DNA of 64,000 bases from an uncultured Clostridium sp. (GTDB lineage Bacteria; Bacillota; Clostridia; TANB77; CAG-508), in the NCBI GenBank assembly GCA_900552135.1, contig URYN01000008.1:21326-85325 (forward strand). Reading direction: 5' to 3'. Of the stretch, positions 3,785-8,654 are shown in pieces. Made by a program: the position numbers and the translations under genes. Numbering within the stretch: the first letter of the stretch is position 1; each line of letters opens with the position of its first letter. Below the pieces are notes generated by a model. That model did no database searches, was not told where the DNA came from, and saw only the letters and a list, made by a program, of their open reading frames with translations.

Positions 3785-3814
3785 ATTGACTTTTTTTCTT
3801 TCTAAGTGGTATAA
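3785..3814 (+). promoter_or_regulatory. Sigma-A-like promoter (TTGACT-18-TGgTATAAT, extended -10) for the MATE fusion gene
   Basis: Seen directly in sequence upstream of RBS AAGGGGGAGG. Confidence 0.4.
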
Positions 3815-3911
3815 TAGGCAAGCTAACAAAAAAGAGAGTAAGGGTTGTGAGAAGAATTTAGTGTTCCTCTCCAACCTGATATTTATGTCTTTTTATCAAA
3901 AAGGGGGAGGA

Positions 3912-5930
3912 ATGAAAGAAAAAATGGAGCAAGAAAATATACTTGGAAAAGAAAAAATAGGTAAATTAATATTAAAATTTTCTATTCCTTGCATTGTTTC
4001 AATGTTGGTAAACTCATTATATAACATAGTAGACCAAATATTCATTGGACAAGGAGTAGGACCGCTAGGGAATGGTGCTACAAATGTAGTATTCCCACTA
4101 GTAATGATAGGCTTAGCATTTTCTTTAATGTTTGGAGATGGTGCATCAGCATATTTAAGCTTAAAACTTGGAGAAAAGAAGAAAAAAGAAGCAGAAATAG
4201 GAATTGGTAACGGAATATTATTATCTGCAATTGTATCAATATTTTTCTGTATAATCACATTAATCTTTTTACCACAATTTTTAACAATATTTGGCTGTAC
4301 TGAAAAATTAAGAGAATTCGCAATGATTTATGGTAAGATTATTGCAATTGGTCTTCCATTCTCTATGATTGGAACTACTTTGAATTCAATTATTAGAGCA
4401 GATGGAAATCCTAAATTTGCTATGATGAGCATGGTAGCAGGCGCAATTTTAAATACAATATTAGATCCAATATTCATATTTAAATTCGACATGGGAGTAG
4501 CTGGTGCAGCTATTGCTACTGTAATAAGCCAAGTGCTTACATTTGTATTAAACGTTGCATATATTAAGAAATTTAAATCTATACAATTATCAAAAGAAAG
4601 CTTTAAATTAAAAGCTGGAGTATGCAAGAAAGTTTCAATGCTTGGAATAAGTAGTTTTATTACTCAAATGAGTATTGTATGTGTTATGACTGCCGAAAAT
4701 AATTTACTTGGAAAATATGGTGCAAATAGCGAATACGGAGCCGAAACTCCAATTACGGTTCTTGGAATTGTAATGAAGATAAATCAAATATTAAATAGCA
4801 TAATAATAGGTATTGCTGCAGGAAGTCAACCTATAATTGGATATAATTATGGTGCTAAGAAATATGACAGAGTAAAGAAAACACTGAAGATTGTTCTAAG
4901 TTCAAGTTTAGTAATAAGTACAATAGCATTCATATTGTTCCAAACAATACCAGATAAATTAATCTTAATATTTGGTAATGGTGATGTAAAATACATGGAG
5001 TTTGCATGTTTAGCATTTAGAACATATTTATTACTTTGCATCTGTAATGGTGTTCAAATACCATCAGGAATTTTCTTTCAAGCAATCGGAAAAAGCACAA
5101 AGAGTGCTATATTATCACTTTCAAGACAAATTGTTATATTAATTCCTGCTATGATAATATTGAGTGGAATCTATGGAATAATGGGTGTATTAAGTGCTGG
5201 ACCGGTAGCTGATGGATTAGCGTTTGTATTGGCTGTTATACTTCTAATAAAAGAAACAAGAGGCATGAAGGCTGATGGAGTAGAAACAGAAAAAGCAGAA
5301 AGAAAAGAAATACCAGAAACTGCAGTAGCTAACAACGGAATTGTAATCACAATTGCAAGAGAATATGGTTCTGGCGGAAGATATATTGGAAAATTAGTTG
5401 CAGAAAGATTAGGAATTAAACTATACGATAAAAACATAATAGAAAAAATGTCAGAAGAAACAGGATTGGCAAAAGAATATATAAAAGACAACGAACAAAA
5501 AAGAACTGTTTTCGACAATTTCAATAATGGCTATTATGCTGGTCTGAATAACTCTGACGAACTATTTATACAAGAATCAAACTTAATAAAAGATTTAGCT
5601 GATAGGGAATCTTGTGTGATAGTTGGAAGATGTGCAGACTTCATATTAAAAGACAAAAAGAATGTTTTGAAAATATTTGTAAGTAGTAGTATGGAAAATA
5701 AAGTAAAAAGAGCAACAGAATTTTATCATATAGATAAGAAAAATGCAGAAAAAGAGATTACAAGAATAAATAAACTAAGAGCAAATCACTATGAATACTA
5801 TACAGAAAGAGGCTGGGAGACATCATCAAATTATGATATTTGCGTAAACAGCGATTCTATTGGAATCGACAATGTTGTAGACTTAATATGCAGTATAGTA
5901 GAGAAAAGTAAAGAATTTGCGGTTAAATAA
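3912..5930 (+). CDS. MATE-family efflux transporter fused to C-terminal cytidylate-kinase-like (Cytidylate_kin2) domain
   Basis: ORF 3786-5930; start at ATG 3912 after AAGGGGGAGG; ~12 TM MATE core then TIAREYGSGGRYIGKLVAERLGIKLYDK P-loop-like kinase-like domain in one continuous frame. Confidence 0.75.
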   Translation: MKEKMEQENILGKEKIGKLILKFSIPCIVSMLVNSLYNIVDQIFIGQGVGPLGNGATNVVFPLVMIGLAFSLMFGDGASAYLSLKLGEKKKKEAEIGIGNGILLSAIVSIFFCIITLIFLPQFLTIFGCTEKLREFAMIYGKIIAIGLPFSMIGTTLNSIIRADGNPKFAMMSMVAGAILNTILDPIFIFKFDMGVAGAAIATVISQVLTFVLNVAYIKKFKSIQLSKESFKLKAGVCKKVSMLGISSFITQMSIVCVMTAENNLLGKYGANSEYGAETPITVLGIVMKINQILNSIIIGIAAGSQPIIGYNYGAKKYDRVKKTLKIVLSSSLVISTIAFILFQTIPDKLILIFGNGDVKYMEFACLAFRTYLLLCICNGVQIPSGIFFQAIGKSTKSAILSLSRQIVILIPAMIILSGIYGIMGVLSAGPVADGLAFVLAVILLIKETRGMKADGVETEKAERKEIPETAVANNGIVITIAREYGSGGRYIGKLVAERLGIKLYDKNIIEKMSEETGLAKEYIKDNEQKRTVFDNFNNGYYAGLNNSDELFIQESNLIKDLADRESCVIVGRCADFILKDKKNVLKIFVSSSMENKVKRATEFYHIDKKNAEKEITRINKLRANHYEYYTERGWETSSNYDICVNSDSIGIDNVVDLICSIVEKSKEFAVK

Positions 5931-5975: not shown

Positions 5976-6974
5976 ATGTTTAAGCCAAAGGCTTTATATT
6001 GTGAAAATAATATTGAAAATTATGTGCTTGGAAGAGAGCTATTAGAAAAATATGCTGATGTTCCAAGAGTGATAATTGACAATCATAATAATATTGAAGA
6101 AATGAGAAAGAAGCAAAATAAAGATTTTGCGGATATGAAACGAAATTTGATAATAGGAGTGAGGAAGACGCATAAGTTTGTTCCAAATCACAAGACATCA
6201 GATTTTCTAGTTCCATATACATCCTCTGGTTGTACAGCAATGTGTATGTACTGTTACCTTGTCTGCAATTACAACAAGTGTGCGTATTTGAGGCTATTTG
6301 TGAATAGAGAAGAGATGCTAGATAAAATTATAAGAACAGCACAAAATGCAGAAAAAGATTTAACCTTTGAAATTGGAAGTAATAGTGATTTAGTTTTAGA
6401 AAATACCATTACAAACAATTTAGTTTGGACGATTGAAAACTTTGCAAATACTTCGAAGGGACATTTAACTTTTCCTACCAAGTTTGATATGGTAGATGAT
6501 ATTCTGACTTTAAAACATAATGGAAAAGTTACTGTTAGAATGAGTGTGAATCCCGAAGAAATTATTAATAAGGTTGAATTTGGTACGTCAAGACTAAAAA
6601 ATAGAGTCCAGGCTATTAATAAATTAGCCGATGCCGACTATCCTATTGGAATTTTGATAGCACCAGTAATTTTAGTAGAAAATTGGAAAGAACTATACTC
6701 GAATTTGATAAAATATCTGTATGAAAATTTGAGCGAAAAGGCTAAGAAACATGCCTTTTTCGAAATTATTTTTATGACATACAGTTTTGTTCATAGAGCA
6801 ATAAATACAGAGGTATTTCCAAATGCCATAGATTTATATAATCCAGAATTGATGAGAGGCCGTGGAAGAGGAAAATATATGTATAAAGACTATATTCGTG
6901 AAGAAGGAGAAAAATTCTTACGAGAAGAAATGCAGAAATATTTTCCGCATAATCAGATTGAATATGTGGTATAA
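5976..6974 (+). CDS. splB: Spore photoproduct lyase (radical SAM)
   Basis: Radical-SAM cysteine cluster SGCTAMCMYCYL; overall SplB-like length; start ATG 5976 after GGTGA. Confidence 0.75.
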   Translation: MFKPKALYCENNIENYVLGRELLEKYADVPRVIIDNHNNIEEMRKKQNKDFADMKRNLIIGVRKTHKFVPNHKTSDFLVPYTSSGCTAMCMYCYLVCNYNKCAYLRLFVNREEMLDKIIRTAQNAEKDLTFEIGSNSDLVLENTITNNLVWTIENFANTSKGHLTFPTKFDMVDDILTLKHNGKVTVRMSVNPEEIINKVEFGTSRLKNRVQAINKLADADYPIGILIAPVILVENWKELYSNLIKYLYENLSEKAKKHAFFEIIFMTYSFVHRAINTEVFPNAIDLYNPELMRGRGRGKYMYKDYIREEGEKFLREEMQKYFPHNQIEYVV

Positions 6975-6995: not shown

Positions 6996-7026
6996 TCGCC
7001 CATTGGGGACGTCCCTTTTTGGGCGA
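6996..7026 (+). repeat. 31-nt GC-rich palindromic hairpin element, copy 3 (TCGCCCATTGGGGACGTCCCTTTTTGGGCGA)
   Basis: Immediately after splB stop; near-identical to copies 1, 2 and 4. Confidence 0.8.
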
Positions 7027-7050
7027 AAAAGAGTACAAAATTTCCTTCGT

Positions 7051-7164
7051 CCACAAATTGTACAAATTGGAAATAGTACAATTTTTCCCCCGGAACTAAA
7101 TTGTACTGTCCTCGAATTGCAAATTGTAAAAAGTCCAAAATCTCCCCCGGAACCAAATTGTACT
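7051..7164 (+). repeat. Cluster of GTACAATTT/AAATTGTAC hairpin and 24-nt direct repeats (TTTCCCCCGGAACTAAATTGTACT at 7084-7107 and TCTCCCCCGGAACCAAATTGTACT at 7141-7164)
   Basis: Palindrome TTGTACAA 7057-7064; hairpin GTACAATTT-N13-AAATTGTAC 7076-7106; related element at 62837-62899. Confidence 0.7.
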
Positions 7165-7172
7165 AAAAGAGC

Positions 7173-7201
7173 TTGACATAAATATATTTAATTTGTATAA
7201 T
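7173..7201 (+). promoter_or_regulatory. Sigma-A consensus promoter (TTGACA-17-TATAAT) driving the SAM riboswitch/metK leader
   Basis: Perfect -35 and -10 hexamers with 17-nt spacer. Confidence 0.55.
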
Positions 7202-7218
7202 AGGTTTTGTAATATATA

Positions 7219-7326
7219 TATTATCAAGAGTGGACGAGAGAATCGGCTTTATGACTCCACAGCAACCTATTGGGTTAGGTGCTAATACCGACAAAGTTAC
7301 GGAAAGTACTTTGAATGATGATTTCT
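7219..7326 (+). ncRNA. SAM-I (S-box) riboswitch aptamer upstream of metK
   Basis: UUAUCAAGAG...GCAACC...GGUGCUAAUACC...GAAUGAUGA blocks match S-box P1/P2/P3 consensus in order; followed by intrinsic terminator; gene context (metK) is the canonical target. Confidence 0.65.
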
Positions 7327-7336
7327 AAGAATCGTT

Positions 7337-7370
7337 AAACTTTGTACCTGCGCAAGTACAAAGTTTTTTA
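7337..7370 (+). terminator. Riboswitch expression-platform intrinsic terminator (AAACTTTGTAC-loop-GTACAAAGTTTTTTT)
   Basis: 11-bp perfect stem plus U-run. Confidence 0.7.
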
Positions 7371-7463: not shown

Positions 7464-7494
7464 TCGCCCCAAAAGGGGCGTCCCCAATGGGCGA
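7464..7494 (-). repeat. 31-nt GC-rich palindromic hairpin element, copy 4, lying between riboswitch terminator and metK RBS
   Basis: TCGCCCCAAAAGGGGCGTCCCCAATGGGCGA; reverse complement matches copy 3 at 28/31. Confidence 0.8.
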
Positions 7495-7511: not shown

Positions 7512-8654
7512 ATGAAAAGATTATTTACATCAGAGAGTGTTACAGGAGGACATCCGGATAAGCTATGTGATTATATATCGGATAGTATTCTGGATAGTTA
7601 TTTGGCAAAAGATAAGAATGCTAGAGTTGCTTGCGAAACCGTTGCGGGCAAAGGAGAAATTTATATAACTGGAGAAATTACATCGACTGCAAATGTTGAT
7701 ATTGAGCAGGTTGTGAGAGACACCATAAAAGAGGTTGGTTATGCAGATAGTGGGTACGATATTGATTACAGAACTTGCAAAATATACATAAGCTTATCTA
7801 AACAATCTCCTGATATTGCACAAGGAGTTGATAAATCGCTTGAAGATAAAGAAGGACAAGATGTTGAATCTGAAGGAGCCGGTGATCAAGGCTTAATGTT
7901 TGGTTATGCTTGTGATGAAACAGAGGAGTTAATGCCTCTTCCAATTTTGCTTGCACACAAGCTTTCTAAGAGATTGACTGAAGTTAGAAAAGAAAAAATA
8001 ATAGATTATTTAAGACCAGATGGTAAGACACAGGTTACAGTTGAATATGATGGAGACAAGCCTGTAAGAGTGGATACTATTGTTGTTTCTACACAACATC
8101 TACCTGATGTTGATATGGATATTTTAAAAAATGACATAATTAAAAAAGTTATAAAACCAACAGTTCCAGCCAATTTATTAGATGAAAACACAAAATATTT
8201 TATTAATCCAACAGGAAGATTTGTAATAGGTGGACCTCTTGGGGACAGTGGTCTTACAGGTAGAAAAATAATAGTTGATACTTATGGCGGAGCTGCAAGA
8301 CATGGTGGAGGAGCTTTTTCAGGAAAAGATCCTACAAAGGTTGACCGTTCGGCTTCTTATATGGCAAGACATATTGCAAAAAATATTGTTGCAAATGGTT
8401 ATGCAAAGAGATGCGAAATACAAATAGCATACAGCATTGGTGTGGCAAAACCAGTATCAATATATGTAAATACTTATGGAACCAATACAATTCCAGAAGA
8501 AGAGATTATAGAAAAAATAAATAATACATTTGATTTAACACCAAGAGGAATAATAAATTATCTTGATTTACAAAGGCCAATTTATAGACAAACAACAAAC
8601 TACGGTCATTTTGGAAAAAAAGACCTACCTTGGGAGAAAATTATAAAATTTTAA
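7512..8654 (+). CDS. metK: S-adenosylmethionine synthetase
   Basis: [21 protein letters not shown]-terminus, [16 protein letters not shown] and other MetK signature blocks; RBS GGAGGAG. Confidence 0.95.

Follow-up and report, generated by a model that had tools for sequence, protein, structure and literature searches.

Known REP and RAYT systems

REP/RAYT systems are known mainly from Proteobacteria, with some examples in Cyanobacteria and Bacteroidetes. To our knowledge, there is no agreed DNA partner for the largest RAYT group (Group 1), which is present in Clostridia too. In canonical REPs the foot is an unpaired GT[AG]G (or CGTC), the stem is GC-rich and the loop is short (PMC3733652, PMC6006769), and the surveys that describe them make no mention of Firmicutes (PMC3733652, PMC6006769). 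A related arrangement is the TIRtron, in which inverted repeats with the motif GGGGWSAS stand on either side of a RAYT-like 'TIRYT' gene (Di Nocera et al. 2013, PMC3733652); among these repeats are self-complementary ones that make up families of moderate abundance (PMC3733652). TIRYTs have been equated with TnpAY1 subclass 2.1, which comprises proteins of ~238 aa with a proximal SS motif and a C-terminal HTH and corresponds to Bertels Group 1 (Quentin et al. 2018, PMC6006769). For this subclass, REP-like sequences were found by neither automatic nor manual search (PMC6006769). Group 1 RAYTs are present in Clostridia, and their flanking 16-mers recur ~12 times per replicon (Bertels et al. 2017, PMC5581495).

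The stretch of DNA analysed here (the window, 64 kb) carries short hairpins at two intergenic loci near its opposite ends. They are most readily interpreted as mobile DNA, small and non-autonomous, and not as regulatory operators. With a probability of roughly 0.7, they are copies of a 31-nt REP-like repeat, non-autonomous and extragenic, that belongs to an uncultured human-gut lineage of Clostridia and its sister species and has a RAYT-like transposase as its cognate enzyme. A literature search found no published description of this 31-nt repeat, and the literature searched describes no such repeat family from Firmicutes.

Repeat units in the window

The arms GTACAATTT and AAATTGTAC, separated by exactly 13 nt, occur at 7076-7106 (locus 1) and 62837-62867 (locus 2), with no match in 100 dinucleotide-preserving shuffles; the pair of shared-arm hairpins recorded in the initial annotation is therefore genuine. 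They belong to a family of 31-nt units with five clear copies in the window, three at locus 1 on the plus strand and two inverted at locus 2. When 31-mers are scanned with up to 10 mismatches to the family master (unit D), the window yields six sites, and each of 10 shuffles yields none. Locus 2 corresponds to locus 1 read as its reverse complement (33 nt, 85% complementary), and since the GC skew is positive throughout the window, the loci are oppositely oriented within a single replichore. The cores had been described as variable, but those in the window (TTCCTTCGTCCAC, TTCCCCCGGAACT, CTCCCCCGGAACC and TTCCTCCGTCCCC, written on one strand) are related and fall into two subtypes, TTTTTYCTCCGTCCCC and TTTTTCCCCCGGAACC.

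Locus 1 begins with a unit that had gone unrecorded. This unit A (7033..7063, +, GTACAAAATTTCCTTCGTCCACAAATTGTAC) is decayed, with four mismatches to the master. It is followed by a linker (7064..7075, +, AAATTGGAAATA) that resembles a degenerate reiteration of the right arm, and then by unit B (7076..7106, +, GTACAATTTTTCCCCCGGAACTAAATTGTAC), which has the 'B' core subtype and perfect 9-bp arms. Unit C (7133..7163, +, GTCCAAAATCTCCCCCGGAACCAAATTGTAC) completes the array. Units B and C fall within a 45-nt direct repeat with a period of 57 nt (7063-7107 versus 7120-7164, 84% identical), of which the 22/24 repeat noted earlier at 7141-7164 is a real part. The spacing does not indicate a CRISPR array, in which unique spacers of ~25–40 nt would alternate regularly with repeats, and this reading was rejected: start-to-start distances are 43 and 57 nt, the 'spacers' of 12 and 26 nt are repeat-derived, and units also occur dispersed singly.

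At locus 2, unit D (62837..62867, −, GTACAATTTTTCCTCCGTCCCCAAATTGTAC) is the family master on the minus strand and begins 6 nt past the stop codon of the aldose 1-epimerase gene (61958..62830, +). The degenerate repeat reported after it is likewise real and constitutes a second unit, E (62869..62899, −, beginning GTACAATCTTTTCCCGTCCTCAAATT). A possible relic, unit F (62936..62966, −), differs from the master at 10 positions and lies across both the Shine-Dalgarno sequence and the ATG of a 66-aa membrane ORF (62961-63161) downstream of the locus; the match is weak and may have arisen by chance. Overall, the intact units in the window are D (master type) and B (second subtype), while A, C and E are decayed.

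The surroundings of the two loci differ. Locus 1 lies between the spore photoproduct lyase gene (splB, 5976..6974, +) and a sigma-70-like promoter (7173-7201, +) that agrees with the consensus at 12/12 positions. This promoter, together with a SAM-I riboswitch (7218-7324, +, Rfam 70.5 bits) and its terminator (7337-7366, +), controls metK (7512-8654). At locus 2 a promoter scan detected none before the next ORF, so that the statement that both hairpins stand ahead of a promoter holds for the first locus only. No terminator was found at either locus in a terminator scan, and an Rfam scan of the whole window returned the SAM riboswitch alone, the repeats having no match.

A second family of hairpins, TCGCCC...GGGCGA, occurs nearby. 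Its members are also 31 nt long and have the core GGGGACG; one of them (6996..7026, TCGCCCATTGGGGACGTCCCTTTTTGGGCGA) abuts unit A, and further copies in the window lie at 1016-1046, 1134-1164 and 7464-7494, the last within the metK leader. The initial annotation had suggested a link between the two kinds of element. They do co-cluster physically, at three independent loci, but the TCGCCC...GGGCGA family is separate from the GTACAATTT...AAATTGTAC family.

Distribution and strain variation

The species-genome scan used a degenerate pattern and one genome for each of 185,579 species. It gave 68 matches, which are unrelated singletons except in one MAG, CAKOSX01, from an uncultured member of the Clostridia in the Hadza gut, where the identical unit GTACAATTTTTTCTCCGTCCCCAAATTGTAC occurs at three unrelated intergenic loci. 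Where they overlap, the DNA of CAKOSX01, of the sister species, and that of the window are ~75% identical; the window's own species gave no match among the 185,579 genomes. Copy number looks modest, with three exact copies in CAKOSX01, the one MAG in which they could be counted. In metagenomes there are ~22 true matches on contigs of 28–34% GC, representing at least 10 distinct loci, and the subtypes CTCCGTCCCC and CCCCGGAACC share identical arms. A search with an HMM of the unit (nhmmer) gave ~60 significant matches in 483 kb of contigs; many are the same loci in different strains, and they are often clustered, two to five per cluster. The 31-nt unit is thus present at ~20 different intergenic sites in contigs of the window lineage and the sister species, often in tandem.

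Placement is strictly intergenic. All of the ~30 copies checked, at ~18 representative loci, are located between ORFs; they may point either way relative to the flanking genes, and several begin 6–10 nt past a stop codon. Full units are often trailed by a reiteration of their 3' part alone (CAAATTGTAC or CGTCCCCAAATTGTAC), and the base following a unit is usually C. Of the two suggestions in the initial annotation, that of a small mobile element family is supported by the identical units at many unrelated intergenic sites in two species, by the differences in copy number between strains, and by the inverted copies on either side of a RAYT-like HUH transposase gene (see below).

Copy number also varies between strains. 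The two loci were compared on contigs that come from many human-gut metagenomes, are 95–99% identical to the window and encode the identical MetK, epimerase or 66-aa protein. At locus 1, two strains (L001 and L002) are short by exactly 57 bp and retain unit A and one B/C hybrid; the corresponding excess in the window can be placed at 7107..7163 (+), that is, linker plus unit C, but its boundary is ambiguous inside the repeat and the strain alignment puts the gap ~20 bases further left. At locus 2, unit D is present in 19 of 19 sequences (the window and 18 strain contigs), while unit E is found in the window and seven contigs, is absent from nine, and is replaced by other degenerate versions in two. 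Elsewhere, a 59-nt block bounded by CGTCCYC has been gained or lost in mid-unit within one species, and a 10-nt arm reiteration is polymorphic within one species. No clean pair of empty and filled sites was found among these polymorphisms. All are indels that fall inside units already in place or between them, with short repeats at the boundaries, and could come from recombination or slippage without a transposase. An empty site was also sought at the L008 locus of the sister species, aligned to 21050-21540 of the window, but synteny breaks there and the comparison is uninformative.

Such short units with terminal inverted repeats might be thought to be remnants of a conventional element: a DDE-type IS or MITE whose terminal inverted repeats have fused, or an integrase with its att/recombination sites. 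A ParE/antitoxin cassette that lies between direct repeats of unit doublets would suit this explanation, as would the 7–9-nt direct repeats bounding some of the indels. However, no target-site duplication flanks any of the ~11 independent insertions inspected, no DDE transposase or integrase adjoins any of the copies examined, viral contigs and plasmids contain no unit matches, and the only type of transposase found beside the units is HUH/Y1 (see below). MITEs proper, which are 70–300 bp long with the terminal inverted repeats of a DDE IS and with duplications, were rejected on the same grounds, 31 nt being far below their size. An origin from a conventional element is hardly credible.

A RAYT-like gene between inverted units

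A RAYT-like transposase gene, which is not in the 64-kb window, occurs elsewhere among the units and is bracketed by them in seven lineages. Contig L093 has five units in 15 kb together with a gene (1078-1815, −) for a protein of 245 aa that matches Pfam Y1_Tnp (E = 8e-9). Its sole NCBIfam match, over the full length of the profile (positions 2-146 of 146), is NF047646, REP-associated tyrosine transposase, at 72 bits, which is below the curated cut-off of 80. The protein has the HuH motif GNHAHF and the Y-x3-NP motif YIYNNP. Across 31 homologs, N-H-[AV]-H (NHAH/NHVH) and Y-I-H/Y-N-N-P are invariant or nearly so; the homologs are 238–257 aa long, and YKYSSY is conserved. A profile built from the 31 matches PDB 4ER8 (E. 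coli TnpA-REP) at 5e-6, versus 0.3 for IS200-type TnpAs. The AlphaFold model of an ortholog, P0048, agrees with this (pLDDT 89), the top Foldseek match being 4ER8 (E = 6.5e-8, TM 0.72), with IS608 at 4e-5. A C-terminal tail of ~100 aa is helical in the model and gives weak HTH matches in many members. A 229-aa ORF on contig L119, considered as a transposase because of its length, was rejected as a cytidylate-kinase-like gene.

P0048 (on contigs L126, L127, L139 and L140) is 68% identical to the L093 protein, with ~79% identity at the DNA level, and its gene is likewise bracketed. In both lineages (L093/L125 and L126/L127/L139/L140), two G-strand units precede the gene by 240–300 nt, and a single C-strand unit overlaps the transposase stop codon (TGAACAATTTTTCCCCCGTCCCCAAATTGTAC). 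Both lineages also have the same gene neighbourhood (GT8, two acyltransferases, the RAYT-like gene and an HTH gene). Shared neighbourhood and identical bracketing fit a vertically inherited gene at a single locus and not an insertion sequence.

P0048, as carried on L126 and L139, is probably the ortholog present in the window's own genome, judging indirectly from sequence comparison. The two transposase loci differ by ~21–25% in DNA, which matches the divergence of the window lineage from that of CAKOSX01. In addition, the B subtype is present on L139, as is a TCGCCC unit that matches the one at 1016-1046 exactly, and the TCGCCC...GGGCGA family is seen only in contigs of the window lineage. 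Among the seven homolog loci searched, no second transposase was found for that family. The B core subtype itself (units B and C) was never seen adjoining a transposase gene, and a single inverted doublet of units occurs, at 13401-13465 of L139. In both lineages the gene is without a canonical start codon at its conserved N-terminus, so that its activity is uncertain.

Folding and covariation of the hairpins

For an intact unit, whether in single-stranded DNA or in RNA, the predicted fold is a 9-bp A/T-rich stem (7/9 pairs A-T) presenting a 13-nt loop, the sequence of which is TTYCTCCGTCCCC or, on the opposite strand, GGGGACGGAGRAA. As single-stranded DNA the master has a folding energy of −4.4 to −4.7 kcal/mol on either strand (z about −5.6). 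Unit B, which has an extra inner TTCC/GGAA stem, is more stable (−7.2 kcal/mol, z −5.7), while unit A, with a weak hairpin of −1.3 kcal/mol, and unit C, at 0 kcal/mol, have lost the fold.

Related hairpins recur beside five distant homologs of the transposase (L128, L131/L134, L136, L137 and L138; 35–45% identity). All five have a C-strand hairpin at or just past the stop codon, and a G-strand hairpin upstream is clear in four, being degenerate at L137. The 31-nt register is unchanged from that of the window family, and the core (TTTYCTCCGTCCCC) is kept on both sides in four of the five, at L137 downstream only. The stems, on the other hand, have been replaced by ATGATTTT/AAAATCAT, GATGATTTT/AAAATCATC, GATGATTTT/AAAATGAGC and GTGAGAA/TTCTCAC. 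When 29 distinct units are aligned without gaps, 90% of the stem cells pair, versus 74% in shuffles (none of 500 reached the observed value) and 26–42% when the partners are slid, although the percentage paired is inflated because units were pre-filtered for at least 6/9 pairs. Seven of the nine stem pairs have changes on both sides, and the compensating swaps between lineages are independent of the filter. The best-conserved part of the unit is therefore its non-palindromic core, while the arms change with compensation from one lineage to another.

This pattern speaks against the other suggestion of the initial annotation, that the hairpins are operator sites. A dimeric protein (either some unrelated regulator or the RAYT-like protein by way of its HTH tail) would bind the arms GTACAATTT/AAATTGTAC and co-regulate neighbouring genes. 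The arms do form a perfect inverted repeat at a fixed 13-bp spacing, a consensus promoter lies ~10–140 bp downstream of locus 1, and the associated protein family has an HTH-like tail at its C-terminus. An operator for a transcription factor would have conserved half-sites, a sequence-free spacer and a set position relative to the promoter, whereas here unrelated loci share an identical core, and across lineages this core is better conserved than the compensating arms. Units occur in both orientations, mostly a few bases past stop codons and between functionally unrelated genes; no promoter was detected at locus 2; and the tandem arrays decay and vary in number between strains while the neighbouring genes are retained. 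Given the conserved non-palindromic core, the placement past stop codons and the free orientation, the operator reading fails, and we regard it as very improbable. In annotating the window, the hairpins should accordingly not be taken for operators, whether of metK or of the small membrane ORF. Of the two alternatives offered earlier, that of a mobile element stands.

The position of many copies 6–10 nt past a stop codon means that they are probably transcribed, and raises the question of whether they are mainly RNA elements, that is, 3'-end hairpins that terminate or stabilise transcripts, or loops that mimic Shine-Dalgarno (GGAGG) or anti-Shine-Dalgarno (CCUCC) sequences and so modulate translation of the adjacent gene. 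The loop has GGAGGAAAAA on the G strand and CCUCC on the C strand; one copy, on L100, is directly 5' of a real ribosome-binding site, and the relic-like match at locus 2 covers the translation start of the 66-aa ORF. REPs affect mRNA stability in other bacteria (PMC3733652). Against this, either strand may face the upstream gene, so that no single RNA function fits all copies, and the hairpin, at −4.4 kcal/mol, is weak and lacks a U-tract, with no terminator detected at either locus. Copies also decay and vary in number between strains, and an RNA function would not explain why inverted copies surround the transposase gene in seven lineages. A primary role in RNA is improbable; effects at the RNA level, suggested by the GGAGG/CCUCC loops and the copies near ribosome-binding sites, are more likely to be secondary, by exaptation.

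Proposed mechanism and significance

As mobile DNA, the hairpins would be moved by the RAYT-like protein, an HUH/Y1 transposase that ends in a helix-turn-helix tail and would be encoded by a vertically inherited gene present in single copy. On the model of E. coli TnpA-REP and IS608 TnpA, it would attach to the hairpin in single-stranded DNA, with the stem presenting the loop, and cut and rejoin the strand beside it. Binding, cutting and rejoining of this kind could seed new copies in intergenic DNA, and local arrays would then grow, shrink and decay through recombination or slippage between units.

A more far-reaching proposal, which we put forward tentatively and consider rather unlikely as a whole, is that these hairpins are the missing 'REP' partners of Group 1 / subclass 2.1 / TIRYT enzymes, of all RAYT groups the one least understood. 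The enzyme would read the 13-nt loop GGGGACGGAG, carried on a freely covarying stem, and not a GTAG foot, and the same enzyme or a paralog might also serve the TCGCCC...GGGCGA family (31 nt, GGGGACG core). If true, this would extend REP-RAYT biology to abundant Firmicutes of the human gut. The 31-nt hairpin family offers a concrete substrate for biochemical testing, and its members can be used as a marker for strain typing, and for assembly breaks, in a very common gut bacterium.

Comparison with known systems

The IS200/IS605 elements (IS608, ISDra2) have the same HUH/Y1 catalytic fold, and their sub-terminal hairpins, recognised on single-stranded DNA, are the likely analog of the units described here. 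They differ in several respects. The tyrosine motif is Y-x3-NP here and not Y-x3-Q, tnpB is absent, and the gene remains at one syntenic chromosomal site, the hairpin having been multiplied and not the gene.

The likeness to canonical REP/REPIN-RAYT systems (E. coli REP/BIME with TnpA-REP, and the REPINs of Pseudomonas) is closer. REPs are dispersed, extragenic, imperfect palindromes of 20–40 nt, and the present unit, which is 31 nt long and known from ~20 independent loci that are all intergenic, with none within an ORF, is of this kind, occurring in both orientations and mostly downstream of genes. Its clustering with a second repeat family is BIME-like. The transposase homolog is syntenic between species, looks single-copy and lies between inverted copies; it has the HuH and the Y-x3-NP tyrosine of RAYTs, and 4ER8 is its best match in both sequence and fold, which is nearer to TnpA-REP than to the TnpA of IS200/IS608. 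The unit departs from canonical REPs at its ends and in its loop. It has no unpaired 5' GT[AG]G/CGTC foot, but begins with GTAC, which is base-paired as part of the stem and for which sister lineages have GATG, AATG or GTGA; and in place of a GC-rich basal stem with a 2–5-nt loop (or bulge) there is an A/T-rich stem with a loop of 13 nt, so that the loop is the conserved candidate for recognition. CGTC is present, but inside the loop and not at the end. REPs tagged with CGTC were for this reason considered and rejected, since their tag is an unpaired end, and they have no associated transposase. Units here are mostly single or in direct tandem and not in inverted doublets like REPINs, and their copy number appears to be in the tens and not the hundreds.

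TIRtrons provide the nearest parallel. The arrangement typical of REPtrons and TIRtrons, a RAYT-like gene between inverted copies of a dispersed repeat, is found outside the window, with the downstream copy over the 3' end of the gene. The HUH/Y1 protein is RAYT-like, ~240–250 aa long here, and has an HTH-like tail at its C-terminus. The repeats are self-complementary and moderately abundant, dispersed as singles, dimers and clusters, and have a GGGG-A-C-x-G motif: the core GGGGACGG agrees with GGGGWSAS at 7/8 positions, with G against A in the consensus, as judged from the published consensus only. The Y motif is YIHNNP here, against YIELNP or Y[IV]HLNP in TIRtrons and subclass 2.1, and the HuH is often NHAH. 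Length, YKYSSY and the tail liken the protein to subclass 2.1, but the Y motif falls outside the signature of that subclass, and the protein is at most a candidate member. Another difference from subclass 2.1 is that a defined 31-nt hairpin, with a conserved loop and a covarying stem, accompanies the gene in seven lineages. Based on this bracketing, the conserved core and the compensating stems beside distant homologs, the family is REP-like and, compared by published description, closest to the "TIRtron/TIRYT" systems of Group 1/subclass 2.1 RAYTs.

A second hairpin family

Besides the 31-nt GTACAA repeat, a REP-like intergenic hairpin (here the unit), there is a second family of 31-nt hairpins, of the form TCGCCC...GGGCGA with a core of GGGGACG or GGGGCG. 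Copies lie at 1016-1046, 1134-1164, 6996-7026 and 7464-7494 of the window, and one copy is located between the terminator of the SAM riboswitch and the ribosome-binding site of metK. The family adjoins GTACAA clusters at three independent loci (in the window and in the contigs L091 and L106), and is found only in contigs of the window lineage. No transposase gene was found adjoining its copies. The metK leader also carries, in two strains (L001, ∼2718-2735, and L002), an 18-bp tandem duplication, TTGAGGGGAAAGATACCT, that aligns to window position ∼7409 and is absent from the window itself and from strain contig L003. On the other side of splB, the upstream ORF (3786-5930) encodes a fusion of a MatE/polysaccharide-biosynthesis transporter domain with a cytidylate-kinase-like domain at the C-terminus (Pfam PF01554 and PF13189).

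The genome scan returned further repeat families among its chance matches (contigs L004, L038, L049; L023, L031, L033, L034, L046, L052, L059, L061, L065). One of them, present in three Syntrophales/deltaproteobacterial MAGs, is a palindrome that is both long and perfect (GGAAATGGGGACAGGTACAATTTTTCC...GGAAAAATTGTACCTGTCCCCATTTCC); another consists of reiterated GTACAAATTGTACAAAA motifs in MAGs of Nitrospirales and Acidobacteriota.

Partial, relic-like and flanking units

In several contigs the 3' part of the unit alone (10-16 nt) is reiterated immediately behind a full unit (L008, 5151-5161; L093, 5971-5991; L101, 12326-12336; L118, 5155-5171; L123, 211-227; L128, ∼2282-2294). Such reiteration is seen too in a RAYT lineage with a different arm, and one 10-nt example is polymorphic within a species, as judged from L017 and L101. 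These partial copies may reflect slippage, or may be the footprint of cleavage and rejoining. At the 66-aa ORF, a match to the unit with 10 mismatches (window 62936-62966) overlaps both the Shine-Dalgarno sequence and the start codon, reading GACGGAGGAAAAAATG in the ORF against GACGGAGGAAAAATTG in the unit; the match may be due to chance, or the ribosome-binding site may have come from a unit that has since decayed. In L106 (10757-11597), direct repeats of a unit doublet flank a ParE toxin/antitoxin gene pair, as might result from an insertion or duplication of this cassette between clusters of the repeat.

Start of the RAYT-like gene

In both lineages the RAYT-like gene has no canonical start codon at the site where 29 homologs begin with MPRIAR (L093, 1767-1830, minus strand; L126, 3960-4030). 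What both conserve there is AAAGGA, a two-codon mini-ORF (ATG NNN TAA), a single base, and then ATA GCA AGR. The 16 codons preceding the first ATG differ between the lineages by 6 synonymous and 4 non-synonymous changes, and on this comparison they therefore appear to be translated. The arrangement may represent an AUA start or re-initiation, either of which would possibly act as a throttle on expression of the transposase.
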